Origin: Antedon mediterranea
Lineage: Eukaryota > Animalia > Echinodermata
DNA: 64,000 bases
Assembly (NCBI RefSeq): GCF_964355755.1
Contig: NC_092673.1
Location: forward strand, 15,968,948 to 16,032,947
Direction of reading: 5' to 3'
Position numbers and translations under genes: made by a program. Below the pieces are notes generated by a model that saw only the letters and a list, made by a program, of their open reading frames with translations, did no database searches and was not told the DNA's origin. This document shows positions 1 through 32,800 of this stretch, one piece after another (the first letter of the stretch is position 1; each line of letters begins with the position of its first letter).

Positions 1-1840
1 AGAAATGAGATACATTCCATCATGCTTTTTATTATAAATCATTATTTCGTTTTTTTTAGTGAAAGATTAAAAGCCATTTGTTTATGTGGATACAGCGCCA
101 CAATCCAGAGCCAACAGTTTTATAAACAAAATAATCACTTGTGTGCAAAATTTTTTAATAAATTGTGTCAGAGAAATGTATATTTTATTTCTATTTGATC
201 ATTTTATTTCTATCAGATACAGTGTACAATACTTTCCTTTATGAAGTACAGTAAATAATTGTATGTGGTTAATTGTAATCTCAATACAAGTTGGTGCTAA
301 ATGCGAGTTGCCGGTACGCAATATGTCTCAGACGTTTATGTTTTGAGGCTTCAACAGGTGTGTCGTACTGTTGGTGGTAATGCAGCCATGCAATTTCCAA
401 CACATGCAAATTCAAACAGGCAGCAGTGAATCCAGGATGTTCAGTGATGCATATGTAGGCTTCTCCGTATTGTAAATTGTCTGACCTTCCTCCAGCCTAT
501 GATTAATAAATAATAGGGCCTACTTCCTGGCAACATCGACATTCGCGATACGTGGGTAGCATCTGGCAATGGCCACAATCACACCTGTTTTATAAAAACA
601 AAAATATTTTGTAATAATAAATAATATTGTAGCGCTCTAGAGCGCTACAATATTCTGAGATGTCACAATTTATAGGGCGCTATATTAAATATTTTTAAAG
701 TTTTAGTGATTATTAATGATTAATTTAATGTATTGTGTGTGAAATAGGAAAATAAATCTGCATCTTGGCTAGCCTTAGGGGTGGGCCTATCTATCTAGGC
801 CTACCCTAGGCCTATTTCAAACAACAAAGTGCAAATTTGTTAAATAAAATGGTCAGTCTAATTTAATACCGTAATGTACATTTTTGCTTTCTACGATTCA
901 ATTTAGCCTAATCTTTATTTCGTTAAAAAAATTCAATCTAGGCCGTAGGCTTATAGACGATAGCCGACCGTCGCCGGTGAGAGGGCTAGCCGCATGAATT
1001 GGAGTAAAGTACAGTAGTAGGGCCTAGCCTCTATCTAGGCCTAACTAAGCCACAATACACACACTGGCATGACGGAAGAATATCGTAGTTATCTACTAGG
1101 GAATTGTTAATTATACAATAAAGTTATACATTAATTTTTAATAAAAGAGATAGTACTACTAACCAATTTAATAACTGGGTTTGAAGTTGAATATTCTCTG
1201 CTTGAATTGTAGGTAGGCCTCCTAGGCCTACTAGGTGACGGTCACCGTCGCCATCTTCTGATGATGAAGAATCGTCAGAACTACAACCGGGCTCGTACAT
1301 GTACGGCCGAATTAATTTCATCGACATTCCATTCAATATTTCGATTGTTAAACAAAATAGTTTCTCCTTCATTCTCCTCAGTTTCGCATTCCACTATCAA
1401 TGTTTCCTCTTCTAATTCCTCTGACGAAGAACTGTCAAAATCATACGCAATACGTGTTGACATCCTAGTTTGTACAGTACAGCTCAGGCGGGCGAAAAAG
1501 TTTCTTCATCTTATGACGTCACTATCAGAGGTTACCGGAAAATGCCGAAAAAACCCGAATAGTCGTGAACTGAGAGCAGTTGCGCGAAATAGCAGAAAAC
1601 ACTTTAATTATGTCCTGAAAACTTTTAATTTATTGTCTGTTTAATATCCATCAAGGAGAACAACTATAATACTACTATTTTACATAAACATCAAATACCA
1701 TGTTCCATGATCTTATTACGATTTTCTGAGGTAAATAATTTTTTTTTTGATCCAATTTTTTTTCAAAGTGAATAACTTTTATGTATCATTAAAATGGCCT
1801 TTAAAAAAAAAAAATTTTTGTTCAGGGGGACAATACATCT
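1..1840. mobile_element. Kolobok-type DNA transposon (right end in window), inserted in an ankyrin-unit intron
   Basis: Ends ...ggggacaatacatCT|TTAA. The empty site 'gcttTTAAgaaaagttccgtctc' is seen in the homologous intron at ~13815. Carries a KolX-like gene. Confidence 0.75.
301..1463 (-). pseudogene. Decayed KolX / P2X7 C-terminal-ballast-like gene (2 exons: 1463-1164, 584-301)
   Basis: IRPYMYEP...LNW|CDCGHCQMLPTYRECRCCQEV...CITEHPGFTAACLNLHVLEIAW...KRLRHIAYRQL; frameshifts, C-terminus missing. Confidence 0.8.
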
Positions 1841-2703
1841 TTAAGAACAGTTCCGTCTCTTATCTTATGACTTTTCGGGGAAAAATGACATTATTAAAGT
1901 TGTTATATAAAATTTGATACTAGTAAGTGTCAATAGATGGTTCTTAAATACATGACCTTTGGTAAATATCTGAAAATTGCACTGTACACAAGGCAAATAA
2001 ATACAGATATGATGGAATTTATGTTGTCAAATATAATTTTCATCCTGAGAATTACCTGAATTTTGTTTATTGCATGGCATTGTTCACCAAATTCCTGTCT
2101 TGGTACAATTGATGATGGGATGGTTTAAGGCTTCATGATATGATATGATCTTCATCGAGTCATGATATGATATGATCTTCATCGAGGAAAATGGTTTAAA
2201 CTAAATTTGTTATCGTTAATATCTAACTTAGCTTAATTATGATATTGGTTTCATTGGGTGTTAAAAATCAGTACTGAAAGTATGTACCAACTTTCTCTAC
2301 CATTGAGTATAAATTCTAGAAGTTGCACTTAATTTACTAAATTTCCCATTACGTAAATTTATATGTAAATTCATTTAACTGCTTATTGGCTTCATATTGT
2401 TAACATCTAAACATTTGTTTGTACAATTTTATGAAATATGTATTTTATTAATGTTCAAATTTTGTGATTGATATTGTACAGTAAGTAGATTTTAATGATT
2501 ACTTACATTAAGTAATAGGCTAACAATCACTAGATCTGATCCATGGTAATATATTATATTTTGTTTTCATTTATCAATAATGATAATTAGAATTTTATCA
2601 CATTATTTAGCAGTAATTGTTGTTGTTTGTATTTACAGAAAAAAACAATTTCACATAATGTCTGTTGTCAGTATTTATAAACTTCATTATGATTCCTTTC
2701 CAG

Positions 2704-2823
2704 TATGGTGACACTATATTACATTCATATCTGGGGAATCGTGGATATACAACAACTATACCTACCTTAGAAATAGTGACGTGTCTCATTCAGCATGGGG
2801 CACCAGTAGCATTGCAAAATAAG
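2704..2823 (+). CDS. Ankyrin-repeat exon A1 (40 aa, phase 0-0)
   Basis: ttccag|YGDTILHSYLGNRGYTTTIPTLEIVTCLIQHGAPVALQNK|gtaatg; fits ankyrin consensus GxTPLH...LEIVxxLIxHGA. Confidence 0.85.
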
Positions 2824-5800
2824 GTAATGTACAGGGATTTGCTAGTGTAATAAGCTAACATTATATAGATCTGCTGAAGTAAACCATTTAATGAGAGAAA
2901 AAAGTAAGCACATTAACAAAAATCAAATTTTTGAATTAGTAATTCGTTTGAACGGATTAATAATCTGTTCAAACGAATTGCAACATATACAACAAGTGCC
3001 ATTTAAAGTATATGTTGTAATTCGTTTAAACGAATTACTAATTTGTTTAAACAGATTACTAATTCGTTCAAACGAATTACTAATTCGTTCAAACAGATTA
3101 GTAATCCGTTTAAACAAATTATTAATTTGTTTAAACAAATTATTAATTTGTTTAAACGGATTACTAATTCGTTTGAACGAATTAGTAATCCGTTTAAACA
3201 AATTATTAATTCGTTTAAACAAATTAGTAATCCGTTTAAACAAATTAGTAATTCGTTTGAAAGAATTAGTAATTCGTTTGAACAAATTAGTAATCCGTTT
3301 AAACAAATTAGTAATTCGTTTGAACGGATTAGTAATCCGTTTAAACGAATTACAACATATACTTTAAATGGCACTTGTTGTATATGTTGCAATTCGTTTG
3401 AACGGATTACTAATTCGTTTGAACAGATTATTAATCCGTTCAAACGAATTACTAATTCGTTAGAACGGATTACGTTCGAAAAACATACACTTAAAATGGC
3501 ATTAATGGGCCTTCGTAACAAACCAACTAAAAAAATAACTAAATAGTTATATATGATTTATGATAACTGATTTAAAGTGTACAGTTACCTATCATATAAC
3601 ATAAATCTTTAATTTTCTCAATGAAAAATCTTCATAGTAACCTACAATAATAATAATATCCTGGATTTATATAGCGCCTAATGTTGTTAAACCTCTAAGC
3701 GCTGAACATTTTCCTGATCAAACACCTATGGAAACATTCTCCCATAACGCAGCTAGTAATAAGCGCAAAGTTGTGTCTTGATCTAACCGGGTTCCCAATT
3801 ATACACCTGGGTGGAGAGAGGCAAACGTAAAGTAAAGTATCTTGCCTAAGGATACAAGCAATGCGGCGAGAGTTGGATTCGAAACTCGATCTCACGATCA
3901 GCAGTCCAACGTCCTTACAATGTTGTTAACATTTTTATGACCTTAAAACAAATATAAATTGCTCATTATTACTGTATGTACTTTAAGATAACGATTGACA
4001 ATGGTCTAATTAATTGTAAATATGAAATAAAATGGGACATGCTACATTTGACTATTAATAAACTAACAAATTAAAAAATGTTTATGTTAAAAATAGAATC
4101 TGATTTCAATAAAAAAGGATTATTAATTGTTAATAACCTGCTCCCGCCCTTTACTTACTTTACAATAAAATACTTCTGTAAGTCTTATCACATACAGTAT
4201 GAATATGGCCTTAAAGAGATCCTTTTCCAAACAAACATTTTGCACAAAAGGAAGAGAAATGTAAATAATGTTTAGTTTAGTAAAAATGTTTGAGCAATGC
4301 GATTTCAAAAAGAAATTTAATATGAAATTATTCTTTTCAAACAGTGCCGTATCTTATCTTATGACTTTTTGGAAAAAATGATTCTATTAAAGTTGCCAGT
4401 TAAAATTTGATATACTGGTAATTAAGTGCCCACAGATGGTTCTCGAATACATAAACTTCGGTAAATAACTGAATATTGTCTAAGTCGGACTGTACACAAA
4501 GCAAATAAATATAGATATGATGGAATTTATGTAGTCAAATATAATTGTCATCTTGAGAATTACCTTAATTTTGTTTATTGCATGGTATTGTTCACCAAAT
4601 TCCTGTCTTGGTACATTTGATAATGGGATGGGATCGTCAATATAGTACACTGGTTTTCATTAGGTGTTAAAAATTAGTACTGAAAGTATTTACCAACTTT
4701 CTCTACCATTGGGTAAAAATTCTAAAAGTTGAACTTAATTTACAGAAATTTCCCATTACGTAAATTTATATATAAATTCATTAAACTGCTTATTGGCCTC
4801 ATATTTTTAATATCTCAACATTTGTTTGTACAATTTTATGAAATATTTATTTTATAACGTTCAAATTTTGTGATTGCCATTCAGGCCCGTATCCAGGGGG
4901 GGGTGCGTTGGGTGCAGACGCACCCCCCCAAGTCCCAAAAGGTCCACTATTTCCTCGGTTGGTATTTTTTCTTGTCTTGTTTAACTAAAGACAATATCAT
5001 TATATATATACAAAATTTACATTATCAATGGTATACAAACAAAAATATGCTAATATAAAATGAAAAAATACCGGTAATTAAATTACGGAATCTAAACTGA
5101 CTACAAACTCGATATAAAACATGCGCAGTCGATCATGTGACGACAAGCAATAGCTTAGCGCTTCATGTACGCGGTACGCGGTAAAGTGTTTGCTGGAGAA
5201 ATACAACTTAACGTCAGGGAACACGTGTACTTTTTGTCGGGGAATATAATATACAGTAAAAAGCGTTCGCGTTCACTTCGTAGCTAGCTTCAGCGCCTAG
5301 AAAACCGCGACGTTTCATTGACCGTGAGAGTACGTCAGAGTGATATTATGCACTTAAAATGCATTCATTATTGCCAGCGATCTAACTTACTACTAAACAA
5401 TAGCTAGGTACGCACTTGTCTGGCGGTATCCCTTTGTACGAATCGTTCAACGTTGGGTCGAGACGCGTGATATCAAGTTTCATCCAGGGACCAAAATGTG
5501 TAATGTGTTATTTTCCAGGCGAAGTTTACCGACGGTTACGTCGTGTACTGCGTCGACGTACGCTACACTACAGCAAAAACGAATTATGTTAATTGTTCGT
5601 TTGTTCACCAATTTTTTAATTTACAAGTAACCTTCTGTACCGTGGGGCACCTAAAATAAATTTTTCATCCATTACTAAACAAAAAAACATGCCATTTTCG
5701 CTTAGCCAACATTATAGCTATAGTTATTACATTTTCAATATCCTGTTTGTCATGAATTTCTCACCACTCGGAAGTCCAGATGGTACGCATGTATATACCT

Positions 5801-8800
5801 GGGAGGAATAAACTTTTTTCCCCGACTGAAAAAGGTCTACGCTTGCGTTTTTTAAGCCTCTAGGCCTGATGTTTCCAAAGTATAAAATGCAATTTTTTGA
5901 AGACCTGCAGCTCTAGTTTTAAACATTTTCTTAGCTCAGCCCCAACAATAAAGCTGGTCATATTTCGAAGAACAAGAAGTACATTTTCCGGGACCTAACA
6001 TCTCTATTTTTCAAGCATTTCTTAGCTCAGTCACAACCCATGATAGGGACTTATATATTTTTTTTCATGTTTTGAAGTATAATAAGTCCAATTTCCGGGA
6101 CCTCCAACTCTATTTTTCAAAATTTTCTTTGAACTTTTATTTTTTAAATTGAAAAATATGGATTGAAACAGTCATCGCGCATCGTTTTTTTGCACGCAGT
6201 ATTTTATTTATGCATTATAAAAAATGGAAAAAATGGCTACCCTAAATCTGATTAAAAAGACCTCAAATGACGCTAGAACGCGTTGCTTCCGGGGGCTTCG
6301 CCCCCTGGACCCACCGGGGGCCCTTGGCGGCCCCTGGCCCTCAGCCTAGTGATGCTCGCTTCGCTCGCATAGCCCCCTCGTCGGGGAATGTAGCCCCCGC
6401 GTCGGGAAGATCCTGGCGCCACCCCTGCTGAGTTGGCCTCATCATGAAAGCGTTAAGTTCTGGTGTCCATCGTTCAACTAGCCCAAGCCACAACAGAGAG
6501 TCTGACATCAGTCTTTAGAACGTCAAATAACGCAAATTTTTCCAGGGCCTTCGGCCCCTGGACCCTGACCGGGGGCCCTTGGCGGCCCCCTGGCCCCCAG
6601 CCATTGTTGCTCGCTTCGCTCGCACCCCCCCATTATAAATGCTGCATACGGGCCTGCCATTGTACAGTAATTAGATTTTGATGATTACTTACATTAAGTA
6701 ATAGGCTAACAATCACTAGATCTGATCCATGGTAATATATTATATTTTGTTTTCATTTATCAATAATGATAATTAGGATTTTATCACATTATTTAGCAGT
6801 AATTGTTGTTGTTTGTATTAACAAAAAAAAAACCAATTTCACATAATGTCTGTTGTCAGTATTTATAAACTTCATGATTACGATTCCTTTCCAGAATGGA
6901 AACACTCCATTACATGAGTGTCTGTGGCTTGGAGACCCTACCTTAGAAATAGTGACGTGTCTCATTCAGCATGAGGCGCCAGTAGCATTGCAAAATAAGG
7001 TAAATGTATAGGGATTTGCTAGTGTAATAAGCTAACATTCTATAGATCTACTGAAGTAAACCATTTAATGAGAGAAAAAAGTAAGCACATTAACAAAAAT
7101 CAAATTTGATTAAAACAAACCAAATAAAAAATAACTAAATAGTTATATATGATTTATGATAACTGATTTAAAGTGTACAGTTACCTATCATATAACATAA
7201 ATCTTTAATTTTCTTAATGAACAAAAAAATCAATTTTTTTTATATATTCAGTTATTAATTAACAATTATTGACAATGGTCTAATATGAAATAAAATGCGA
7301 CAACTACTAAACAATTAAAAATGTTTATGTTAAAAAAATTAATAGAATCTGATTTTAATAAAAAATAATTATTAATTAAAAACCTGCTCCCTCCCTTACC
7401 TTACAAAAAATGCTTCTGTCAGTCTATCCAGCTAATTATGAAAATGGCCTTAAAGAAATCTTTTTCCAACCTAGGGTTCTCACAGATGCTTCTCGAATAC
7501 ATGAACTTTGGTAAATAACTGAAAATTGCACTGGACACCAGGCAAATAAATACAGATATGATGGAATTTATGTAGTCAAATATAATTGTCATCCTGAGAA
7601 TTACCTTAATTTTGTTTATTGCATGGTATTGTTCACCAAATTCCTGTCTTGGTACATTTGATGATGGGATGTTATCAGGTTTCATGATATGATATGATTT
7701 TCATCGAGGCAAATGGTTTAAATTAAATTTGTTATCGTTAATATCTAACTTAGCTTAATTATGATATTGGTTCATTGGGTGTTAAAAATCAGTACTGAAA
7801 GTATTTACCAACTTTCTCTACCATTGAGTATAAATTCTAGAAGTTGCACTTAATTTACTAAAATTTCCCATTACCTAAATTTATATGTAAATTCATTTAA
7901 CTGCTTATTGGCTTCATATTGTTAACATCTAAACATTTGTTTGTACAATTTTATGAAATATGTATTTTATTAATGTTCAAATTTTGTGATTGATATTGTA
8001 CAGTAAGTAGATTTTAATGATTACTTACATTAAGTAATAGGCTAACAATCACTAGATCTGATCCATGGTAATATATTATATTTTGTTTTCATTTATCAAT
8101 AATGATAATTAGAATTTTATCACATTATTTAGCAGTAATTGTTGTTGTTTGTATTTACAAAAAAAACCAATTTCACATAATGTCTGTTTGTCAGTATTTA
8201 TAAACTTCATGATTATCATTCCTTTCCAGGATGGTAACACTCTATTACATTCATATCTGAGGAGTGGATATCTGAGGCGTGTATATACAACAACTATACT
8301 GGTACCTACCTTAGAAATAGTGACGTGTCTCATAATGTCTGTTGTCAGTATTTATAAACTTCATTATGATTCCTTTCCAGTCTGGTGACACTCTATTACA
8401 TTCATATCTGAGGAGTGGAAATACACCTACCTTAGAAATAGTGACGTGTCTCATTCAGCATGGGCCACCAGTAGCATTGCAAAATAAGGTAAATGTACAG
8501 GAATTTGCTAGTGTAATAAGCTAACATTATATAGATCTGCTGAAGTAAACCATTTAATGAGAGAAAAAAGTAAGCACATTAACAAAAATCAAATTTTATT
8601 AAAACAAACCAAATAAAAAAATAACTAAATAGTTATATATGATTTATGATAACTGATTTAAAGTGTACAGTTACCTATCATATAATATAAATCTTTAATT
8701 TTCTTAATGAACAATAAAATCTATTTTTTTTATATATTCAGTTATTAATTAACAATTATTGATAATGGTCTAATTAATTGTAAATATGAAATAAAATGGG

Positions 8801-11800
8801 ACAACTACTAAACAAAAATTAATTGAATCTGATTTTAATAAAAAAAAATTATTAATTGATAATGATTATTAATTAATAATGTGCTCCTTCCCTTATCTTA
8901 CAAAAAAAATTCTTCTGTCAGTCTATCTAGCTAATTATAAACATGGCCTTAAACTACATCTGGAGATCCTTTTCCAACCTAGGATCTTTTTGTGCAAACA
9001 TTTTTTGATCTTCATCGAGGCAAATGATAAATTTGTTTTGATCGTCAATATTCATTCATTCATTCATTCATTCATTCAGGCTTATTGCCTGACTTTATTT
9101 ACTTTAGGCCTCTGGCCCCTAGTAATTAATAAAATAATAATTACATTGAAAAATAAAGCAATTTATGGTCACAAGATAAATGAATTAATTAACTTATAAG
9201 CATGATAAATATATTTAGATAGATTATCAATAATTATTGGATCCTGTGATGAAATTAAACGGCAGAATTTAAAAGTATTTGGATTTTCAAAAAATAAAGA
9301 AGGTATAAATTTTTTTCTGATTTCCTTGTAACGAGAGCAAACTGTAACAAAATGATATTCACCTTCAACTTCATTTATATCACATATTTTACATAACCTA
9401 TTGTTGCGCTCTATTCTTTTCCATCTTCCCTTTTCTACCTCTAGTTGAAGTGTGCCCAGTCTTTTAGTTGACTTAAAGCTCGCTTATATCTAGTATCAAG
9501 GGTCTGTAGTAAGTATCCATCTACTCCGAAATTGTTTTTGAACATTTTATAATATCTTAATTTTGAAGAAATATTTATGCTTTCATGAAAGGATTGGCGT
9601 TCCATATCGGTTAGCCTTTCTTTTATTTGATTAATTATATGAAATTTATCAAGGACATTATTTTGTGAAAACCATATGTTTCCATGACCAATAGAGCATA
9701 ACATATGTTTTACATCGCTTACCCAACAATTACTATTATTTTGCGCTTTATGAAGTTGAGATTTATAACATTTCTTCGCATATCTGTCCTCGTTCATATT
9801 TACTAGTCTTACCCAATAACGGATAACATTGAGTACACCTTCGATTGATAAAGAGAATCGTCTACATTCCCCTCTAATTGAAACATTTGTGGCTGATTTC
9901 CCGACCCCTAAAACATATCTACAGAAATTATTTTGAATATCATCAATTTTGTTGTTGTTTAGTTTTCCCCATATTTCACTACCATACAGTATAATTGGGT
10001 TTATTTTAACATCAAATAAGTTAGTTCCAAATATTCACTAGTAAATGTCCATATTTCTGATATACTATATTTTTGAGTGAGAAAAGTGCTTTATTAGCCT
10101 GTGTATTATTTTGTTCTCTGGCCTTTTCCCAAATTCCTGAACAATCGAAAGTGACTCCAAGATATTTAAGAGATTTTACTATTTCAATTTCTTTACCAAG
10201 TTAATTCCACTTTTCGTAGTTCTTAAGTTTTCCATTTAAAAAAAATACTATTTTACTTTTGTCAATGTTAACTACCAATCCCTACCTATTACAATAATAT
10301 GCTAATTTATTTAAAAGATCTTGTAATGAGTACACTGTATCACTGATTAAAACTAGATCATCTGCATACAGTAGGTGATTAATATTTATGTTATCAATTT
10401 TTATTTTGTTTCGATTTTCAGCAGTATGATAACTCAGTTATATCATTAATTATTAAATAATAATGAAGATAAAGGTGACCCTTGTTGTATTCCTACTTCA
10501 CATTTAAAGGATTCTCCAATTTGTTGCCAACCTTTACATGCCCTTTTAATTTACTATACATTGTTTTTATAACTTTGATTATTTTACCTTTTATACCAGA
10601 TTTTCTTAGTTTACAAGGAAATCGTGTCTAATAGAATCGAAAGCGCGTTTTAAATCTATAAACGCCATGTACACAGTTCCTCGTTTTTTTTAGAAATATT
10701 TGTTAACAATTGTGTATAAAATAAATATGTTATCAATAGTACGACAATCTTTTCTAAACCATCCCTGTTCTTGATGTAATATTTCATTTTCTTCTGTCCA
10801 TTTGCTTAATCTATTGCTTATAATGTATAACAAGCACGAATGTGCAATACTCGGGGTACAGCGAAAGAAGCTGTAATGACGTCATAAGACCGGATGTAAC
10901 GTCACATACACATCAATAACCGCGCTACCAAATACGGCTATACGGTACCATCTTCGAGACGTGATATGGCTGCATCCGGTTTGAAATTAAAAAATCCAGC
11001 TCTATAGATTTGAGGACATGTCCCTGTAGTATATTCATGCTAAATCTGAGCTCAATACTACAACGAATAAGGGAGGAGTAGTACTTTATAAATCGCACTT
11101 TTTGCTCAATAGTGTCCAGATGGAAGAAGAAGAGGAAAAGATGAGAGAGTCCTAGACTCAGGTACCCCGGGTAATAAAACGAGATATACTCTATATCATA
11201 TTACGTATACAGTATATTTCACCATAAAGTTAAAGAAAAATAGGTTTCGTCAGGGCTCGAACCGGGACCTTCTGCGTGTTAAGCAGACTTGACCACCACT
11301 ACACTACAAAACCTCTTACACTAAAAATGTGGGTTACACAAAGTTTTTTAATCCATTTAAATTACAAATAAATATGGTAATAAGCATAAAGCAAAATAAA
11401 CGTGTGTAAAAGTGATAATTACCGATTACACAAAGTAAGTATTTAAAAAAATAATAAAAATAAGATATAGTGTGTATAATTATCATATTGCGTATACAGT
11501 ACTTTTCACCATATAAAGTTTTAAAAAAAAAACCTTCGTCCGGGCTCGAACCAGGTACCTTCTGCGTGTTAAGCAAACGTGATAACCACTCGCCAAGAAG
11601 CCGCATATAACTACATAACGCTGTGGTGTGTGTCACACATTGTGGCTTCTTAATTGAAAAAATTAATTAACAAAAAAGCACGAATGTGCGATACTCGGGG
11701 TGCAGCAAATGAAGCTGTAATGACGTCATAAGACGGGATGTGACGTCACATACACATCAATAACCTACCAAATACGGCTATATGGTACCATATCCGAGAC

Positions 11801-14800
11801 GTCATATGGCTGCATCCGATTTGAAATTTAAAAATCTGTCTCTATAGCTTTGAGGACATGTCCCTGTAGTATATTCATGCCAAATCCCAGCTCAATACTA
11901 CAACGAATAAGGGAGGAGTAGTACTTTAAAAATCGCACTTTTTACTCAATAGTGTCCAGATGGAGGAAGAGGAGAAAATGAGTAAGTACTAGACTCGGGT
12001 ACCCCGAGTAAAAACACCTTGCCTAAAGTGGATATTAAGGATACGCCTCTATAATTTGCTGGTTGATCTCTTTTACTCTTTTTAAATATAGGAATAATAA
12101 TGCTTGTTGCCCATTGCTGGGAAAAATTTCCAGAGGTAAAAATACTATTAAAAATTTTCGTAATTGCGCTAATAGCAGCATTTGGCATACAAGTAAAAAA
12201 TTCAATTGGGAATCCATCAATACCTGGAGCTTTACCCCTTTTCTGTGCTTTAATTGCATAAATTACTTCTTCCCGGCTGATTTCTTCATTGTAACAATCG
12301 TTATGTTCGCAATTGTTATCGTTATCGTCTTCTATATTGATTTCTTGTGTATTATTTGTTTGATTTTGGAACATTGTTTTGAAGTAATCATGCCATTTTT
12401 TAAGTGTAATGTTTGTCACGTTTTGTTGTCGTTTGGTTTTAAGGTTTTTCCAAAATATTGTACTGTTATGTTCCTTTATTAACCTGATTAATTTTTGTTG
12501 TGATGAATTTTTATGTTTATTTTTTTTAAATTTTATTAATTTTTTATAACTCCTTTTTTTTAACAGATATTCATTTAATAGGGTGTTAGTTTTGTATTTT
12601 CTATATTTATTAAGAATGCTACGAATAATAATTTTCTTTTTTATGCATTGACGATCAAACCATGTATTCTTGGGCAATTTTGTGCATTTTTGTTGTATTT
12701 GTGTTTGTTTTTTTGTATTTATGTACATTTATAGTACACTGGTTTTCATTAGGTGTTAAAAATCAGTACCGGAAGTATGTACAAACTTTCTCTACCATTG
12801 AGTATAAATTCTAGAAGTTGCACTTAATTTACTAAAATTTCCCATTACCTAAATTTATATGTAAATTCATTTAACTGCTTATTGGTCTCATATTGTTAAC
12901 ATCTAAACATTTGTTTGTACAATTTTATGAAATATGTATTTTATTAATGTTTACATTTTGTGATTGATATTGTACAGTACGTAGATTTTAATGATTACTT
13001 ACATTAAGTAATAGGCTAACAATCACTAGATCTGATCCATGGTAAGATATTATATTTTGTTTTCATTTATCAATAATGATAATTAGGATTTTATCACATT
13101 ATTTAGCAGTAATTGTTGTTGTTTGTATTTACAAAAAAAAACAATTTCACATAATGTCTGTTGTCAGTATTTATAAACGTTCATGATTATGATTTTTTTC
13201 CAGGATGGTAACACTCCATTACAGTCATATCTGTGGAGTGTATATACACCTACCTTAGAAATAGTTACGTGTCTCATTCAGCATGGGGCACCATTAGCAT
13301 TGCAAAATAAGGTAAATGTACAGGGATTTGCTAGTGTAATAGGCTAACATTCTATAGATCTGCTGAAGTAAACCCATTAACAAAAATCAAATTTTATTAA
13401 AACAAACCAAATAAAAAAATAACTAAATAGTTATATATGATTTATGATAACTGATTTAAAATGTAAAGTCTAATTAATTGTAAATATGAAATAAAATTTG
13501 ACAACTACTAAACAACTAAAAAATGTTTATGTTAAAAAAATTAATAGAATCTGATTTTAATAAAAAATGATTATTAATTAAAAACCTGCTCCCTCCCTTA
13601 CCTTACAAAAAATGCTTCTGTCAGTCTATCCAGCTAATTATGAACATGGCTTTAAAGAAATCCTTTTCCAACCTAGGGTCTTTTTGTGCAAACATTTGCC
13701 ACAAAATGAAGAGAAATGTACACAATGTTTTGTTAGTTTTCAAAATCTAAATTGTTTGAGTAATGCAATTTAAAAAAGAAAAGTAATATGAAATTAGTCT
13801 TTTCAAACTGAATGCTTTTAAGAAAAGTTCCGTCTCTTATCTTATGACTTTTTTGAAAAAATTAATTCTCGTTTTTTTTTTATTCAGTATATTACACAGA
13901 GGCGCCTTACAAAATGGAACCATCTTAGCTTCAAGGCGCCTCAGATTAACAAATACAACATTTTAAAACAACTAACAGAAACATCAATTAAATCTTCCAG
14001 AATTAACAAGAAATTGTTGTACATAATAAAATAATAAAGCATTTTCACAATTCGAAAGAAGATCGGAACCAAAAATAAAAATTTCACTTAAAAATGTAAA
14101 ATTAAATGTTAAAGAAAAATCCTTGGCTAAGATATCCTCAATAATTGAGTTAGCGCTTACAAGTAGAATATCTCTTTGTGTATTATAATTAGGGCAGTAA
14201 CATAAGAAATGAAGCGGATTCTCAACATTAAAGCCACAAGTACAATTTGGATTGTCCCGAAGTCCATGTAAGAATAAATGCGAATTGAGACAGCTGAAAC
14301 CAAGTCGGATTCTAGTGTGAATTTGGTTAATCTTCTTATCACCTGTATCATAATAAGAACGTTTTTTTGTTTCAAACAAATTGGATTTCAGTAGCAATTT
14401 TTTAAACTCAACAAGAAATGAGGAATTTTTTATTTCATTATTTAACTCATTCCAATGTGTTATAATAGATGGGACAAAAGATAAACGATATGATGTGGTC
14501 TTACAAAATGGAATTATTATATTTCGGATGTTACGCAAGTTATAAACTTCAATATTGTCAGAAAAATTAAATAAGAAGTAAAGATACACTGGTGTTAACT
14601 TATGAATAATTTTAAAAAACAGTATTAGGTTAAGAAATTGTCTACGTTTTTCCAATGATAACCAGCCTAATTCTTGTCTTAATGCATTATGACTTGTATG
14701 TTTCCACGCACCAGTACATATTCTACCTGCAGAAATCTGGATATTTTCTAGTTCATCACTTAATTTATCTGGGATATTACACCAAACAGGAGCTGCATAT

Positions 14801-17800
14801 TCCATTAATGGTCTAACGTGTGATATGTAAATGTGACAGAGAGCCTGTCGAGGTAGAATATGTTTGACACGACGTAGCATATTTAAAGATAAAGACGCTT
14901 TGTTAATTACAGATTGGATATGGGAATCCCACTTGAGTTTTGCATTAAGCATTAAACCAAGATGCCTATGATCATTTACAAATTGTAGATTTACATTATT
15001 GAAATTTAAACTAACATAGTTATCTAAATGTTTACGTGTAAACAGTATAGCTTTCGTTTTGTTAGCATTGAATGTTACTTTCCATTTTTTTGCCCAATTA
15101 TAAATGACATTAAGATCACCATTTAATTTTTGTTCTGAAATATTACGATCTGTACAAATATCATATAACGAAGTATCATCTGCATATACACTAATATTAG
15201 ATTTGATATTATCAACCATATCATTTATGAATACAATAAATAAAAATGGACCCAAAACAGATCCTTGGGGTACTCCTGCTGTAATGGTCACCCAATGACT
15301 GGTAGTTCCTTCAATAATAACACGTTGCTCACGTGAGTTTAAGTAACTTTGGAACCATTTTAGAAGAGTGCCATTAATTCCATATTGATTTAATTTGTAT
15401 ATAATCCCATTATGCCAAACTTTATCGAAGGCTTTGGAAATATCCAAAAATACCGAGATTACTTCTTTCCTTAAATCTAAAGCTCTATTAAATGTATCTT
15501 TAAGATAAAGAAGTTGATACGTTGTCGAGTCACCTGGTGTAAAACCAGATTGGAATTGAGTAAGAAGTTTATTATCCACAAAGTATTTATATACTATATC
15601 AAAAACTGCACGCTCAAAAATTTTTGCAAAGTTGGAAAGTATGGATATAGGGCGGTAGTTCTCAATAAGGGATTTATTGCCTTTTTTATGCAGAGGAATG
15701 ACATTTGATTTTTTCCATTCCACAGGAAAATATCCTTGGCTTATGCAGAAGTTATAAAGCTTTGTCAAATGGGGTGCAATAATTTCAGCAGATTCTATTA
15801 GTATGATACTGTGAATTTCATCAGGTCCCATCGCCTTGTTTTTATCCAGCATAGTTAATAATTTCATGATCTCATCAACAGATAATTTGAGAGTTGAGAG
15901 TCTCGATGCAGTTCTATATGTGAAGTCCGAAGGAAAATCATCATGATTAGGAATAAACGATTGAGATTTAAAATAATTGTTAAACGCTTTAACTTTCTCA
16001 CTATTTAAAGTTAGGACATCATCGTTTAATTTGATTGGAGGAATCTTATAATATTGTTTGGAATTACAAACTGAATTTATGGTAGACCACCAAGTTTTTG
16101 AATCACAGTTTTTATTCATTAATAAATCAAATTGTTTATCCAAAAAAGTTTGTTTAGCTTTTCTTATTGCTTTAACAACTTTTGCGCGAATTTTCTTAAA
16201 ACGTTGCATATGCGAATTTGAGTTATTTCGAGTGGAATGGGCGCGATTTCTTTTGCGAATAAGAGTTCTAATATGAGCATTAATCCAAGGCTTGTCATTA
16301 GGACGCACAGTTATAATTTTAGATATAATATAGTTATCAACACAATTATTAAATAAGTCAATCCAATTATGACAAACATCTTCAACCTTTGAAGATGAAT
16401 AAACTTCTTCCCAATTTACAGAATTAAGAGCATTACGATATAAATTAAAATCAGTTTTTTCAAAAAGATATATTTTACGATTGTATGGCTTGTCCCGTGT
16501 GATACGAATATCAATATTTGCATATACTGGACTGTGATCACAATTTAAAAGTGGGCACAATGCACCAAAATCATTAATATATACATTTTGACTAGTAACT
16601 ATATGGTCAATACAAGACCGTTGGTCTTTTATACAACGTGTTGGCATATTGATGTGTTGAGTTAAACCGTTTTGTTGTAAAAATTCGTAAAATGATTTTC
16701 CAAATCTATTTGTGTTTCCATCATTGTACCAGTTGTTATTTTGAGCATTCATATCGCCCATCATTAAAGTTAAGCTGTGTCGAGACAAAACAAAGTTATT
16801 AGTACTGTTTTGAAAATAGTCAAGTAGATCCTGATCAGATTGAACATCACTTTGTGGTGGCCTATAACATACATAAGTCAAAATCGTCCAGTTTGAAACT
16901 TGTATTTCACACCTTATCACATCTGAGATCATTACAAATATGGGAATTAACTAAGTGTATAGAATTAGATATGTAAAAAGCACATCTGCCGCCATGGCGG
17001 TTTCTATCATTTCTAATAGGTTCTTGATAACCGTCTAGTAAAATGTCATGGTTCAAGATAGTTTGATCTAGCCATGTTTCTGTTAAAGCAATAATATCAT
17101 AGTTATTTAAATTTGCTAGGTGTTGAATTTCAGCTAGTTTACCTGGAACGATTAGACTACGTATGTTAATATGGCAAACTGTAAACTGTTCCGGACCAGG
17201 ATTTGGATGTATATCGCCGCACATTAAAAGCATGCACATTAGAACATTATTACGCCCCAAATTTATGATAAATAAATTATCCATTATCAGTAAAAAAAAT
17301 AAGTAAAGTACTCACTTTAAAAACGCTAGCACATATGAGAACACTTAGCCAAACGAACATAGTAAACATTGAAATAAAAACAAGAGAACACGTTTTTGCT
17401 ATCTAAAATCAACAAATAATGGTCAAATTCCGTCGGTAAGAAACGTACTGTTAATGACACCGCACAGTCTAAACGTTCTTAATGTTCAGCAATCAGTCGT
17501 TCAAAATCATTTTCATTCTTGATATGCTTGGGTTTTTCTTCACCTTTACACAGGGCCCATATCTTGCATCTGTTAGTCCAGGCACGTTGAACTCCATCAT
17601 GGTGTCTTACCTTCCAAAAGAGATTGAAATTTGCTTTTGTTAGGTCTTCCGAGATATAAACCGGCATACCCTTCAGTTTGGATTTGGCTGCAAACACATT
17701 GTTACGGGTCCTGATTGAATTGAACCGAACAATTATTGGCCTAGGCTTGTCAGTAATAGGACCGATTCGATGAGATACTTCAATATCGTCGGACTTGAAA

Positions 17801-20800
17801 GTGATACCCATTTTGTCGCGAATAATTCTCGTTAAAATATAATATACTAGTAAGTGCTCACAGATGCTTCTCGAATACATGAACTTTGGTAAATAACTGA
17901 AAATTGCACTGTACACAAAGCAATACAGATATGATGGAATTTATGTATTCAAATATAATTGTCATCCTGAGAATTACCTTAATTTTGTTTATTGCATGGT
18001 ATTGTTCACCAAATTCCTGTCTTGGTACATTTGATGATGGGATGGTACTGTATCAGGCTTCATGATATGATATGATCTTCATCGAGGCAAATGATAAATT
18101 TGTTTTGATCGTCAATATTCATTCATTCATTCATTCATTCAGGCTTATCGCCTGACTATTTACTTTAGGCCTCTGGCCCCTAGTAATTAATAAAATAATA
18201 ATTACATTGAAAAATAAAGCAATTTATGGTCACAAGATAAATGAATTAATTAATTTCGTTCTCTAAGCAAAACATATATCTTAACTTATAAGCATGATAA
18301 ATATATTTAGATAGATTATCAATAATTATTGGATCCTGTGATGATATTAAACGGCAGAATTTAAAAGTATTTGGATTTTCAAAAAATAAAGAAGGTATAA
18401 ATATTTTTCTGATTTCCTTGTAACGAGAGCAAACTGTAACAAAATGATATTCATCTTCAACTTCGTTTTTATCACATATTTTACATAACCTATTTCTGCG
18501 TTCTATTCTTTTCCAGTACAGTAAGTAGATAACCATAATAAATGCACCCGCTCCCAAAGTAATAATGACTTATCTATTCCATTATGGAATAACTCTCAGG
18601 GTAAAAGAACTTTTGTTTATAGATCAACTAAATTATGGAATTCTCTACCAAATAACACAAAATCAGAACTGCATAATATGTCTTTGGCAACTTTTAAATC
18701 TTCACTATAGAAAACATATATGTATTAACCTTTTTGCCTTCACAATTGTAAATAGTTTTATATCTGTTTTCTTTCCTTTTGTTTTTCTTTTTATTTTATT
18801 TTTGTTGTAAATATGTTTACTGAACCACTTTGGAAATCAGTACATTTGTATTGAAAGTGTATTTCAGTTTAAAGAAAGAAGAAATAAATAAATAGATTTT
18901 AATGATTACTTACATTAAAGTAATAGGCTAACAATCACTAGATCTGATCCATGGTAAGATATTATATTTTGTTTTCATTTATCAATAATGATAATTAGGA
19001 TTTTATCACATTATTTAGCAGTAATTGTTGTTGTTTATATTAACAAAAAAAAACAATTTCACATAATGTCTGTTGTCAGTATTTATAAACATTCATGATT
19101 ATGATTCCTTTCCAGTATGGTGACACTCCATTACGTTCATATTTGAAGAGAACTGCACCTACCTTAGAAATAGTGACGTGTCTCATTCAGCATATGGCAC
19201 CAGTAGGATTGCAAAATAAGGTAATGTACAGGGATTTGCTAGTGTAATAGGCTAACATTCTATACATCTGATGTGGTAAACCATTCTATTTTGTTCTGGT
19301 TTACCACATTATTTAGCAGTAATTTTTACTGTATTGTCTCATATTATGGTATATCTGCAGCATTGCAAAATAGGGTAATGTAGGCTTACAAAGAATTGTC
19401 AGGACAATTTCACATTTTATTGTTATCATGAGTATTTATAAACTTCAACTTCAGTATCAATTAGCCTCCATATTAATCAATAGTATTACTACCTCAAAGA
19501 GTAGTATTATTTAATCACACTTACAGATATAGAATTCTAAAGTGTTTGATTTTGTTCACATTTTTCTCTTTTTACGCATAGCACATTCTAACAAGTTTGT
19601 TTTGATTTAGATATTCATTTATAAGTCAACTATAATTGTAATGTGTTGTTGTTGTTTTAATATTTCATTTGTATCTGGATAGTATCCAAATATTATTTTC
19701 TTTGAAAGTTTATAGTAAAACTATTTGTTGTTTTATATTATGGCTCAAACATTTTAACACATCTACCTACTGTTCCAAAGTAAACTTTTATTCAATTTAT
19801 CTCTCTCTCTCTCTCCTCCATCTTTCAATGTTGAAGGCGGTAGACTATAAACGGCAGCGCTCAAGTTTTGGTTTGGATACAGGAGTTATAGGTGGCGCAC
19901 TGTACAAATTGATGTCATTTATTGGCAAATAGTAATTTCTATTCACGTCCTAATTTACAACCAATGTTAAAAAATAGTAAATGTACGTGTTATCACATGA
20001 TGCTCTTTCATCCAATCTCTAGATGGTAAATGTTTGAGCCATGACATAATACTCTATGTATGTGATGCGTAATTAAAGTGTATTATATTGTATATCAATA
20101 ATTTCTCAAAACTACTAATAACTAAACCCATTTTTTTAATAGGATGGAAATACACTTGTCTCTCTTTTAGAAAGTAACAGGCGGATAGAGAGGGAAAGAA
20201 AAACTGAAATTTTAAACTTCTTAGAAGGTAAGTGAAGTTTTAATTATTGAAATTTTAGGATCAACTAGTTTCATTGCAAACGATAAAGATTTGATTTCTC
20301 ATCAAGTGAAGAAGAATGTCCAGATAAAGAAAATTAACATTTATGATATATCATTCACAGGTTTATTATAGATTAAATAATTCAGTGGGATAGTAGTATA
20401 CATGGAAGTTGTGATATGTTGCAAGATGTAAATTATTTTGCTATTAATACGATAAAAATAACACAAAAACGCACACTTTAAAATTCCTTTGAAATAAAAA
20501 TATTAAATAAATCATTTTTCAAATCAAATCAATCTCTTTATTCAATACATCAAAACAGTACACATAACAAAAATAAAGAGATTTTAATGATGATGATGAT
20601 GATTTTAAGATGAAAGGGACCTTCAATAAACCTCAAGGGGCTTTTGATAGGAGGCTTTACTTTAAACTAGTTACAATAATCGGATGGGGGATATGCATTG
20701 TTAAGGAATATTTAAACTTTATTAATTGCACATAAATGTAAAATGTAGATTTTTTTTTTAAATGTAATCTATTTTATATATAATACTATGTACAATTGGT

Positions 20801-26800: not shown

Positions 26801-29800
26801 TTGATTGTTTCCATTTCCAAGAATGCTCGGGAACACATATTTTTTATTTCATTTTCTTGAAGTGTATGTATCATATGTATGATTTATTATGAAATTAAGA
26901 GTACAAAAGTTGATAAAGTCATCGTTAATTGCATTTTAAATTCCAAAAAATTTATTTCGACAATCAAAAATTTTCTGACATTTTCTTAGGCCAAAATAAC
27001 AAACTTTAACTTTCTTCCTTCAAAATAAAAGTTCATATATTAAAGTTAAAAGTATATAGTTTGACAGTGCATCGTTTTTTAACATTTTTAAAGATGTCAT
27101 CATAGTAAAAAATTATAATTCAATGCGTTATGTAATAATCTATCTGCGCCAAAGTGGTTACTGCATAGTAAATACACGGAGGAATCTTTCTACAACTTTT
27201 AGTCAGTTGTGTATGGCTCGGTGGTCTGTGCTCGTGTCTATGGCATTCAAGGTACCAAGATCGAGTCTAACATTGGGAAAGGAAATAAGATTTTTTTTTA
27301 TTATCCGTATTGTTTGTTCAATTTTATTTGTTAGTGTATAGATTATACACATAATTTATAATGAAATCTAGATAAAAAGTAAGTAATGTCTTTATTTTTA
27401 CTATGTAACAATGTTGTATGACATTATACGCGGAGGGATCTTTGATCGGATTGTGATACCGGCTATTGTATTCGCGTTAGCAAGATCCTATATTATAAAT
27501 AATTAAAGATTCTGAGAAAATCAATCAATCAATATATCTTTTAAAAATCAATTATCTTTATTTAAATCAATGCATATAACCTAATTCTAGTTTTTTTTTA
27601 CTTTATTTACTCCAGATGTTTAAAAAATCTATTAAAATCTTGATTCAATTTTCAGATATTGCTGCACGTGAATTAGATTTTCAGAAAGCATACAATGAAG
27701 CCTTGAAAGATGGATCCGTTCCAGTCAATCTTGGAATGCTTAAAGTAATTGGGCAAGAAGGAGTGGGTAAAACATGCCTCATCAATGCATGTCTTGGAAA
27801 AGAGTAAGTAGTAGTTGTAGGACAGTGAAATGAACATTACAAAATATTTGTGAGTCAACTAAGAATTACAAGCCAGCCAACTTTTATTGATTTGTTTTTG
27901 ATAAACTACCACTTTTTAAATATTGCAGTGATAGATAACAATAGTTGAATAAAAACGTCTATAAATATATAAATCGGTTTCTACAATAATCATAACACCA
28001 TCAAATTTTCTATTGATTATAGAATTTACTTTTAGGCTTGTATTTAAAAAAAAGATCATACGAATGGTCGGATAACTTGACTTCCTAAATGTATAATTAA
28101 TGAATATATTAAAATGGTTTTGAAGTAAAAGGAGAAAAGTGCATGTTTTACAGTACCTGTACTTAAAATGACTGAAGTTCATAGTTGGTTTCAAATATTT
28201 TTGCCAGATTTGAGGAAAGGCATGTAGTTACAGATGGCATAGCGGTGATAAGAACAGCAAGCACAACATGGACAGAGGCTAAAGCTGATAGTGGTAAACA
28301 TGAATACATTTAGCATATTACTCTTCCCACCATCATACGTTATGTAACAATATTATCAATAATAATTATTATCATAGACACAGACAAGTCCACAATGAAA
28401 TGGAGACATAGAATTGAATTCAATGCATACAACTGTAGTATGGTGTCACATACATTACAATTGTTACTCTATGATCCCTTTATAACGCGCAAGTTTACTG
28501 TATGTTACATTTTTAATATGATGATGTACAGTAATTGTAAATTTACATTGACAGTGGTAAAATACCCAAAGTATAGTCACATATGAACGTATGTACTGAA
28601 ATAATATGTACACACTTTCTCTTTCTCTACAGGTAATACAATACAACAGTATACAAAAATGGTCACTGACAAATTGAGAAAAAAGAAAACTGTAAATGTA
28701 TGTCAGTAATAGTGTAATGAAAACGGGTCTAGGACAACTACCCCCTGGACAGCTACCACCCGGACAACTACCACCGGACAATAACCCCCTGGACAATCAC
28801 TCTCCTAGGACAACTACCCCCTAGGAAAACTGCCCCCTAGGACAACTACTGTACTAACTTCAAAACATAGGAAGAGAGATTGATCTTAAATGAAAGATTG
28901 TTTGATTGACTGGTGCTGCTAGGTAAACTGTATGTTCCTAGATTTATATACGGCATCTTCATGTCACACAAGAATAAAATAAGCCACCCCTTTATTTTTC
29001 AAGATTGGAATACGTTTTAATAATTTTATCAATTCTCGTTTAATGTAAAATAACTGCTGACGATACGCATATTTAAAAAATCAAAAGCTTTCATATAAGA
29101 TCAATCTCTCTCCCTATGTTTTGAAGTTCAGTAAGTTTTACAAGATCGTAATTATAACTTAAGGTGTAGGTGTCATGATACAGGTGTGGCTGTTCAGAGG
29201 GTGTTGTTTTCCTAGGGGCATAGCAGTTGGATTAGAGGGTAGTTGTCCTAGGAGGGTAGTTGTCCTAGAGGGTAGTTGTCCTAGAGGGTAGTTGTCCTAG
29301 AGGGTAGTTGTCCTAGGGGGTAGTTGTCCTAGGGGGTAGTTGTCCTAGTGGGTAGTTGTCTGGTGGGAGTTGTCCTAAGGGGGTAGTTGTCCTAGAGGGT
29401 AGTTGTCCTAGGGGGTCATTGTCCGGGTGGTAGTTGTCCAGGTCGTAATTGTCCGGGTGGTAATTGTTCAGGGGGTAGTTGTCCGGATACGAATGAAAAC
29501 ATAAAATGAATAAAGTAGTACCTACAGGACTATTGCAAACCAGTCACTTAGGCTTTCTTTCTAAATGAATCAATGATGCATTATGAGCAGCTATTTCATT
29601 TTGTTTTTGCTTCAATCCTTTTAAAATTTACTCTAAAAATTAATTTGGTTTTGCTTTTGAGAGTAAATAATATTAGTTTTCTCTTATATTAAATTGTAAA
29701 CAATACTGTATTTAACTTTGAATAAACATTTATTTCTTTTTTATATCCATATATTGTTTTTGTTTTATGTGTCAGATTGACATGAAACCACCTATAGATG

Positions 29801-32800
29801 ATGATGAGGATGGTATTGTTGTTGACTACAATAACGATGGCAACAATGATGGTATGTAACTTGACCTTAAATTTTAATTATAATTACACAAGACAAAAAC
29901 ATTCTAATTATTCTTACATTTTTGTAGTAAAAGCATTAATAAAGAAGTTGCAATCATCAGTTTGCAATTTCTGTCATTTTAAACATCATTGTCCCCAAAA
30001 AACATGAAAAATAAAGATTATTAAAATCAGACTATGGCGCTTGACCTTTGACAAGATCGCCTAAAATTTATAAATTAAACTTACGATACTTATTATTGTA
30101 TATTCAGGAATAGCCGCTCCATAATCTCTTTGCCTTTCTTCTTTATATCTATATTTTATTTTTTAAATTTATACTAACAAATATATATTTTTATTAATAT
30201 TATAATCATAACAATAAATATTTTAAAAATATATAAAATATTATTTATCGCATAATATGCAGTCTTGGATAATTATTTAATATACAAAATCATTACACCC
30301 AACCACGCCTACTACTTTCATCTCCTATATGCGGAACATCATTTGGATAATAGAACAAATCATACATCTACACATAATCAAGCATCGTATACTCTATCTC
30401 TAACAATATTTCAATCTTCTATCGACTAAAGCTGAAGTATAGTCGTTATCTCGGAACCGTTCTATGGTTACCACCAGGTAGGCTTGATTCATCAAGGCTT
30501 CTATGAATGGATGTACTGGTTGGGAGCAGAAAATCTAGTAGACCATACCCAGTACCGTTTTGATTACGATCAATCGGGAATTTACCTCACGACGAGAATA
30601 GATTATTTTGTAGTCAATCACTTCTATAGAAAAAAAGGAAACACATATAAAATAACAAAAAATAAATGGTTAAATTCAAGCAAAAACCCATTGGCTGGCA
30701 GTCATTTTGACTATTTTTTGCTTAAAATTACAGTTTTTTAGGTAAATACATTTTTTTCAATCCAATTTTTGGTCAAAGTGGATAACTATTAGGTGACATT
30801 CAAATTGCATATTTAAAAAAAAATTGTAAGAATTATTTTTTCAAGGGGACATAAATAAGTTCATAGTTATTTAAAATAATAAGATTATTACCGGTAATTA
30901 GATTTTCCTATTTAATGTAACTAAAGAAGTATAAAATTATGTTATCAGATTTATAACTTAGAGGCAACCTATCTGTGTAACAATTATGGTGACGGTAATT
31001 TGGAGAAAACATGGCAGCAGCCATCCCACTCCTAGACAGTCCAAAGACGCTGTACATGCAGGCTTGATGGGCATGTTTCTTAGTTAGCAATGTTAAACAA
31101 AGATGAACTAAAACACCTAATTAAAACCTTAAAAGGGGCTTACAAAGATGCTTATTTTTTTGTATGAATCTAGAAGAATCAAAGTGAAATCACAGTCTTC
31201 TACACCTACTATATAATATACATAAATATATACTGGGCTTATACAAATTTGCAGATTAATAGTTTGTACATATTAAAGTATCCTTTCATATCTACCATCC
31301 CCTTACACTTACCGTCCCAGTGCGAAAGCTCATATGATGATAATGAAGACAACTATACTCATAGTAACTTTTTAACTGACTGATAAATTAAAATTTTTGA
31401 AATAAAATTATGCTTGTTACGCTGTTTGTGGAATGACCAAAAAATTTGTTTCCACTACAGGTACTGATACAGCTACTCAAGCTGTTCCATTTGATACAGA
31501 TCAACAATTAGATAAGGATGTAATCAAGAAAGTTGAGGAAAAAAAGGAGGAGACTTTGGAAGAAACATTCAACATCTGGGACCATGGGGGACAATTAATA
31601 TACCATGGTCTACATCGGGTAAGTAGGTTTCTGTATAGACTAACATGATTGTATGGCCAAGGTATAGTTGGACGTCTCCCGTTGTGGTGATCTGGTAGGC
31701 GCTTCACTGCTGGCTGCCGTTGGTCAGTGTCAGTGGTCAAGCTCACTTTTCAGTTAAGCTTGAGGACAACTATTAATACCTTTACCTTTTACCTTTATTA
31801 AAGTCTTTATTATATTAATATGTATTGTCCCCTGAAAAAATAATTCTTAACAAATTTTTTTTTAATATTCTATTTTAATGTAACATAATAGTTATCCACT
31901 TTGACCAAAAATTGGATCGAAAAAAAAAATGTATATACCTGAAAAAATGTAATTTAAAGCAAAAAATGGTCAAATTGGCTACCAGCCAATGGATTTTTAT
32001 ATTTTGTCATTTTATAAGTAAAAACATTATTTTTTTTTCGTTTTTTTTTTCAATGGAAGTGATTAACTTTATTAAAACTACAAAATAAATATTCAAATTC
32101 TGATTTAATTAATCTTCATTTTTCATGTTTTTGGGGGACAATACATCTTTAAGGTCCACATACAATTAAAAATAATATTTGTTCATATGTTGTCAAAAGG
32201 CCTTCAAGAATATTAATCAGTCAATATTTAAATATTTTTGCAGATGTTCATGACACTTCAAGCACTATATATTGTTGTGTTTGATCTCAGTAAACCCTTG
32301 GATGATCTTGCTACTTTCATTGATTCATCTGGAGTAAGTATTTCTAGAGCATGGCAGCAGTAAGGTATTGTGATTGAACAAGTCTTTTATAAGAACAGTT
32401 TTTAAAAACTAAGCATTTCTAGTTTAACTGTGGTTAATTGTTCTGTAATTCTTTTTCAGAGGAAATTTCAACATCATTGGACCAATCTCCAGTTCATATT
32501 ATCTTACATCCTGTCAGTTTATTCTCATAGTCGTATTGTGGAAGAAGACAAGGAGAATGAAGTTGACAAACCAACTATCCTTATTGTGGGTACACATAAG
32601 GGGAAGCTTGGCTGGACTGAAGAACAGCAAAATGATGAGGTTAATACTTCTTTTGTTTCTATATTATTATAAATAGCCACAACCAAAGATACATTGCAGT
32701 TGTAACTGTTTTTAAATATTACTTTAAATAAATTACCAAATTGACACATTCTTATTATGCGTAAACTGTTATTAAAATTATATACAAACAGGCAGAAAAG

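Follow-up and report, generated by a model that had tools for sequence, protein, structure and literature searches.

In brown algae, ROCO proteins carry leucine-rich repeats (LRRs) encoded one per exon, with inactivated exons in the introns and positively selected sites on the repeat domain's concave face, as described in two reports (PMC3341825, PMC11378527). For fungal NLR proteins, Dyrka et al. 2014 (PMC4986451) describe ankyrin arrays with strong internal conservation that are polymorphic in repeat number and under selection at the inner helix and hairpin; by the same paper's figures, repeats of this conserved type make up 0.8% of the ANK/TPR/WD repeats of metazoans. ROCO domains are also reported in Aplysia TIR proteins (PMC9334734), and what most ROCO proteins do is described as unknown (PMC11378527). 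Here we analyzed a 64,000-nt stretch of the genome of the crinoid (feather star) Antedon mediterranea, hereafter the window, in which six similar ankyrin exons, U1 to U6, lie in series. We consider it probable, with considerable room for doubt, that these are tandem duplicates of one ankyrin exon within a gene that joins ANK, Roc and COR to a likely death-effector tail, and that selection has favoured differences at the predicted ligand-binding face.

The Antedon locus resembles the brown-algal ROCOs, as presented by Zambounis et al. 2012, in its Roc-COR core, its N-terminal domain encoded as one repeat per symmetric-phase exon, the inactivated exons in its introns, its clustered, high-turnover family, and its variable sites on the concave face, placed there by repeat register. 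It differs in that the repeat is an ankyrin (phase 0, 105–120 nt) rather than an LRR (72 nt, phase 2), and in being an animal gene with a variable-length loop, a tail resembling death-effector domains (DEDs) and no inverted intronic exons. By this analogy, the Antedon array appears to work like the exon-shuffling ROCOs of brown algae without being a member of that group, since its repeat is not an LRR. With the fungal NLRs it shares near-identical ankyrins, a variable inner helix and beta-hairpin, concerted evolution, and the logic of an NTPase combined with a death-type effector. Unlike them, it has Roc-COR in place of NACHT/NB-ARC, the fungal repeats are C-terminal, and each Antedon repeat has an exon to itself, which has been duplicated along with the intron. 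The locus is perhaps best read as an animal, ankyrin-based counterpart of both systems. ROCOs of the DAPK1 type have the architecture ANK, Roc, COR, death fold, and the Antedon chain follows the same domain order; it was seen without a kinase, its tail is DED-like rather than a death domain, and its repeats are young and near-identical. Structural look-alikes in the ESM Atlas, from arthropods, molluscs and sponges, scored below 0.9 and serve as leads only. Exon arrays of ANK-ROCO genes in crinoids or other animals were not found in the full-text literature searched by title and start of abstract, with subscription journals and supplements outside the search.

Ankyrin exons and their duplicated units

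Five intact exons lie on the plus strand: U1 (2704..2823, 120 nt, with an 8-residue loop between helix 1 and helix 2), U2 (6895..6999, 105 nt), U4 (8381..8488, 108 nt), U5 (13204..13311, 108 nt) and U6 (19116..19220, 105 nt). All are bounded by AG..GT and are in phase 0, with one ankyrin repeat per symmetric-phase exon. Four of the five match Pfam Ank, the 33-residue helix-turn-helix-hairpin repeat, at E<=0.008 (U1, E=0.0012; U2, E=7.5e-6, above the cut-off; U4 and U5); U6 has no Pfam match on its own and aligns with the other exons. The remaining copy, U3 (8230..8331, plus strand), is truncated, with an acceptor present and the donor absent. It ends after PTLEIVTCL, where a CAT microhomology forms the junction with an upstream-intron copy, of which the final ~50 nt follow; when read through from its acceptor it enters U4 out of frame and soon meets a stop there. 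U3 also has the longest loop, of 14 residues, created by a 15-nt tandem duplication at 8253-8286. The six translations given by the original prediction, starting at 2704, 6895, 8230, 8381, 13204 and 19116, are correct, as are its intact exon lengths (120/105/108/108/105 nt) and its distinction between intact and truncated exons, the 8230 exon breaking off after PTLEIVTCL.

Every ankyrin exon was duplicated together with its intron. The basal unit is ~1.3 kb, the distance from U2 to U3 being 1335 bp without insertions, and each long intron has transposon insertions of its own. The unit-homologous intron 5' of U1 (1838..2703, plus strand) shows 5 differences in 495 nt from the copy 5' of U3. Right after U6, at 19290-19380, lies a degenerate, frameshifted relic of the 3' half of an ankyrin exon, with a donor-like site. 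A similar junction occurs in contigs of sequencing runs X5 and X8, and the relic may therefore be an old feature at the ends of such arrays.

Divergence of the exon window

The first codons of these exons, here called the exon window, are far more divergent than the sequence around them. In the 215 nt 5' of five acceptors only 3–6 bases differ per pair (mean 2.4%), whereas codons 1–12 show a mean pairwise difference of ~19–21%, against 4.9% for the last 21 codons. Segregating sites number 14/33 in codons 1–11 and 11/210 in the intron (Fisher P=7.5e-8); in the comparison with these exons' own helix 2, whose GC content is equal, the counts are 15/33 and 1/36 (P=2.4e-5). The original prediction of a coding window more divergent than the adjacent upstream intron (21% versus 2.4%), next to near-acceptor intron copies that are almost alike, was therefore borne out. 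Its wider statement that the introns stay nearly identical applies close to the exons but not overall: across all alignable intron, 469 of 8019 positions differ (5.9%, from 31 non-independent alignments that exclude the minisatellite and inserted elements), and a distal patch is 13–25% divergent in five of six pairs. At the all-intron rate 4.2 changes would be expected in the exon window and 16 are observed (P=9e-6). The excess is thus about eightfold over proximal intron and about threefold over intron in general. In the sliding-window comparison that the prediction had proposed, the exon window stands above most intron, yet 13 of 228 intron windows of 33 columns attain its median of 6 differences. 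Nor is variation limited to a single window, as had been thought, since there is another variable patch in the GAPVA codons (6/15 sites; P=0.0016 versus helix 2).

The predicted preservation of frame was seen throughout, all exon length changes being multiples of 3, as against 22 of 111 intron gaps; at least 3–4 loop indels are involved, and the chance of all of them keeping the frame is about 0.002–0.008. Among the exons of the window, 16 codons of helix 2 and LQNK are without any amino-acid change.

A second clock is provided by a fragment of a long interspersed element (LINE) at the same insertion site 5' of U5 and of U6 (9006..9423 and 18073-18515; 9/412 different), for which an empty site lies 5' of U2 at ~4630-4650. 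The two copies of the insertion are 2.2% apart and their flanks differ at 5/214 positions, yet the exon windows of U5 and U6 differ at 7/33. The shared insertion thus indicates that the U5/U6 intron duplication is young, and this clock, which is independent of the intron comparison, agrees with the excess in the exon window.

Position of the variation on the ankyrin fold

In designed ankyrin repeat proteins (DARPins), the variable positions of each repeat are 45, 46, 48, 56 and 57, lining the concave face (PMC10484509). For comparison, we aligned 13 repeats, six from the window and seven from the gene models P0015-P0017, some of the latter being near-duplicates of the window exons; the paralogous exons were compared at the protein level and mapped onto the surface by repeat register. 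Four states occur at repeat positions 3, 10, 13 and 14, three at 7, 9, 11, 27, 28 and 31, and two at 5, while positions 2 and 33 do not vary among the 11 repeats in which they are present. If the DARPin positions correspond, as we take them to do, to repeat positions 2, 3, 5, 13 and 14 (by standard DARPin numbering, checked against DARPin alignments), four of the five vary (3, 5, 13 and 14) and position 2 is invariant. The differences cluster in the beta-turn, helix 1 and the loop between helix 1 and helix 2; helix 2 is almost fixed across the 13 repeats. The loop ranges from 3 to 14 residues and holds every indel; the beta-turn holds none, and the loop is not a DARPin position.

The DARPin-like pattern described by the original prediction therefore holds in part. 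As in the DARPin libraries, helix 2 is frozen (LEIV..L) and four of the five listed positions vary; unlike in those libraries, the Antedon repeats are natural, and framework positions (7, 9, 10, 11, 27 and 28) and the length of the inter-helix loop vary too. P0015 has both U2-type and U1-type repeats, and its structural model folds as a stack of ankyrins (predicted local distance difference test, pLDDT, 88; 68 in the long loop), in which residues 39-46 and 74-83 form helix 1 and residues 51-59 and 91-99 helix 2; the model matches DARPins at a template-modelling (TM) score of ~0.8 in Foldseek. Two repeats of P0020, a more distant paralog, differ from each other at 4 of 36 positions, 13 and 14 included.

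Tests for positive selection

The excess in the exon window is mostly amino-acid changing, with a pooled proportion of nonsynonymous differences (pN) of 0.24 versus 0.12 for synonymous differences (pS). Site tests were run with our own implementation of M1a/M2a, under F1x4 and on 32 codons, a set that excludes codon 12 and those of the loop. In favour of M2a, a star tree gave 14.9 as twice the log-likelihood difference (2dL) and a hand-chosen tree gave 8.9; with the best of 105 trees the value was 7.56, at which P=0.023 and omega is 5.8 on 28% of sites. The sites favoured by M2a are codons 1, 5, 7, 8, 11 and G27. In five deletion tests (for example with codon 3, codon 8, U2 or U3 dropped), 2dL remained 6.0–9.2. 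When the exon window was given its own synonymous rate, omega was 2.05–3.58 (P=0.034–0.25), and the estimates for the variable segments were at least 2 in all 12 fits. These values suggest, and do not prove, positive selection on the exon window.

Family and exchange between units

We found 29 relatives, 23 of them from Antedon; 18 of the latter lie on one contig (36.19 Mb), and thus the family expansion appears to be lineage-specific. A search with U1 gave three proteins among four candidates, all from Antedon, which is weak evidence that this repeat type is restricted to Antedon. The ankyrins of the Anneissia protein P0032 are ordinary and divergent, its last full repeat having a similar insertion after DGNTPLHS. 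The family models P0018-P0035 differ at their ends, with an N-terminal DED in P0021, a kinase and a death domain in P0027 and two Roc-COR modules in P0020. Several have hydrophobic C-terminal segments; all of these models were built automatically, and fusions may be among them.

Intron markers pair U1 with U3 and U5 with U6, and the best exon trees group U1+U4+U6 and U2+U5. All four gametes are present at a pair of biallelic exon sites lying 7 nt apart, which implies either conversion or a recurrent D/N change, and P0015 carries U2-type, U1-type and U2-type windows in series. Together, the four gametes and the repeated windows of P0015 fit exchange between units. The accession of P0015 is three away from that of P0001, an annotated uncharacterized protein of Antedon mediterranea, and so P0015 may be the upstream part of the same gene as the window exons.

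Gene architecture

Omitting U3, a chain of 25 exons (five ankyrin and 20 downstream) is open over 1157 codons, every splice site in it is canonical, and it agrees with P0001 in all of its last 789 residues (789/789). The ankyrin repeats end in a C-capping exon (DGNTLVSLLES..., 20143..20227), identical to residues 76-103 of P0016; two duplicated linker exons follow (24499-24591 and 26505-26585). The Roc GTPase exons (27656..32639) encode G1 (GQEGVGKT, in the exon at 27656-27803), G3 (WDHGG) and G4 (GTHKG), and the COR-region exons occupy 32792..35892. A further exon (38605..39117) encodes the tail, and the stop-codon exon (39274..39331) ends in GNSEKK, as does P0001; all of these features are on the plus strand. 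In the Pfam search of P0001, Roc scored above the cut-off with COR-A (E=2e-14) directly after it, and neither NACHT nor NB-ARC was found. Ankyrin and Roc also occur in one chain in the paralog models P0016 and P0020 and in Anneissia P0032. By the open frame, the splice sites and these joined models, the ankyrin exons are likely the N-terminal part of the Roc-COR gene. An N-capping exon was looked for in the 64 kb and not found, which places the 5' end of the gene upstream of the window.

The tail is likely a tandem death-effector-like domain. The Pfam DED profile, scoring below its cut-off, hits 11 of 14 family members, the Foldseek list is led by the tandem DEDs of caspase-8/cFLIP (best E=0.046), and for the second half of the tail the top 11 VIA rows are all DEDs (Z 6.0–7.6), the first half being poorly modelled. 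The membership of the exons in a Roc-COR-DED gene, which the original prediction had not seen, makes a receptor reading plausible. In contigs of four of 11 sequencing runs over 1800-9000, none of the 15 joints listed (a further 176 lie beyond that listing) is GT..AG; the signal comes mostly from transposon copies and is uninformative on expression.

Two side observations concern the same exons. The linker exon and its introns are tandemly duplicated at 24010-27218, with copies 82–96% identical and the second 12 nt shorter, in frame. In the exon at 32460-32639, the G4 sequence is GTHK(G/A) in every Antedon member containing the motif and GTHRD in both Anneissia proteins. The G4 aspartate determines guanine specificity, and its loss could relax that specificity.

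Weighing the explanations

Several observations weigh against selection at a binding face. U3 is broken, and the framework changes H9 to Q/R, G27 to E/M and A28 to P could be read as decay. The DED score of the tail is below the Pfam cut-off, its model has a pLDDT of 63, and the annotation begins P0001 at ~29175, omitting the ankyrin exons and the P-loop. The distal intron patch, chosen post hoc as the most divergent one, is indistinguishable from the exon window (42/153 versus 12/33, P=0.30). With its own synonymous rate for the exon window, omega>1 gives P=0.17–0.25 on the best tree and 0.03–0.06 on the star tree. A neutral null of mosaic ages, whose older segments evolve at omega=1, yields a nominally significant M2a result in 13 of 66 runs, reaching 2dL 7.56 in eight and 14.9 in one, as simulated and analysed on the star tree. 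These last results are what might be expected if the units had a greater age than the proximal introns imply and conversion had levelled the flanks and helix 2, while the exon window, where indels block pairing, escaped and drifted at omega ~1 under relaxed constraint; the protein may then be functional and its variation non-adaptive. The divergence of the distal patch fits this account, as do a pS of 0.12 in the exon window that exceeds the 0.024 of the proximal intron, segment-specific tests that are non-significant, a null that yields 20% false positives, and the strongly relaxed purifying selection that one study describes in new repeat copies (PMC5120217). We nevertheless regard it as rather unlikely. 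It demands hot and cold segments that switch every 33, 36, 15 and 12 nt with tree lengths ~35-fold apart (2.25 versus 0.06); in the GAPVA patch there is no indel that could block conversion, variable-segment omega does not fall below 2 in any fit, and just 13/228 intron windows match the exon window. Since a roughly 35-fold age difference every 12–36 nt would be required, diversifying selection appears the better reading, although six exons provide no proof. The diversifying selection put forward by the original prediction is thus favoured by the site model and weakened by the fits with a separate synonymous rate and by the null.

The broken U3, the frameshifted relic after U6 and the framework substitutions, together with the many fragmentary family models and the annotation that leaves out the ankyrin exons, would also be compatible with an array that is decaying or unexpressed within a birth-and-death cluster, its differences being unselected damage. 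This is hard to reconcile with the 25 exons without stop or frameshift and with canonical splice sites, with loop indels that all keep the frame when most intron gaps do not, and with the unchanged helix-2 and LQNK codons, and we consider it quite improbable. A mutator targeted to the first 45 nt of each exon, or somatic diversification there, has scarcely any probability in our view: the sharp spatial confinement of the variation and one three-base codon change in U2 might suggest it, but change types are mixed, the codon table has no evident recurring motif or base bias, the same exon windows recur in germline models (P0015), and the second variable patch lies 36 nt away. The targeted mutation offered as an option by the original prediction finds no support. 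In the selective reading that we prefer, unequal crossing-over and gene conversion would copy and homogenise the units, both inside the gene and across paralogs, slippage would extend the helix1-helix2 loop, and substitutions changing the binding face would be retained.

Other elements in the window

The U5-U6 intron contains a full-length LINE on the minus strand (13860-17830), with an 11-bp target-site duplication and an ORF1 remnant, which looks young. Its endonuclease-reverse transcriptase frame spans 988 codons (Pfam RVT_1), and the N-terminal part continues in another frame at 16907-17311. A non-autonomous element resembling a DNA transposon, which has terminal inverted repeats as well as a 5-bp target-site duplication, lies ~240 nt 5' of U2 (4881-6656). 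In the composite insertion of the U4-U5 intron, a tRNA-like segment on the minus strand (11242-11313) is the sole Rfam match and likely the head of a short interspersed element; a similar segment is found at 11481-11590. At 56996-64000, with parts at 45944-46523 and 51775-52414, there is a ~1.6-kb non-coding tandem repeat, 75–91% identical and with dispersed inverted fragments, likely a transposon-derived satellite.

A palindromic 21-bp minisatellite, ~110 nt 3' of U1 (2933-3473) and absent from the other units, could form a 250-bp hairpin. Docking-site pairing for mutually exclusive splicing was considered and rejected, the 25 longest of 367 inverted repeats all falling within one palindromic minisatellite; a masked search of the minus strand did not find a recurring exon-flanking pair.

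Implications

The product of this gene is a candidate innate-immune or non-self receptor, likely intracellular and fast-diversifying. As a cytosolic sensor, it would bind a ligand in the ankyrin groove, which would switch the Roc-COR module; the switched module would in turn expose the DED pair and recruit FADD- or caspase-8-like partners. A bolder proposal, which we put forward as speculation and think more likely wrong than right by some distance, is that crinoids possess a set of variable ANK-Roc-COR-DED receptors, with phase-0 ankyrin cassettes that are exchanged between paralogs, polymorphic in number among individuals and alternatively spliced, a helix1-helix2 loop of variable length that would bind in the manner of the third complementarity-determining region (CDR3), and signalling to a caspase-8-type death pathway.

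Because the public annotation leaves the ankyrin exons off the Roc-COR model, domain surveys would miss this architecture. An immune role for repeat-exon ROCOs has been proposed from brown algae, and a convergent case in a deuterostome, if true, would extend that idea to animals. It would also provide a natural ankyrin scaffold diversified in the helix1-helix2 loop, and would add an intracellular family of variable receptors to echinoderm immunity.

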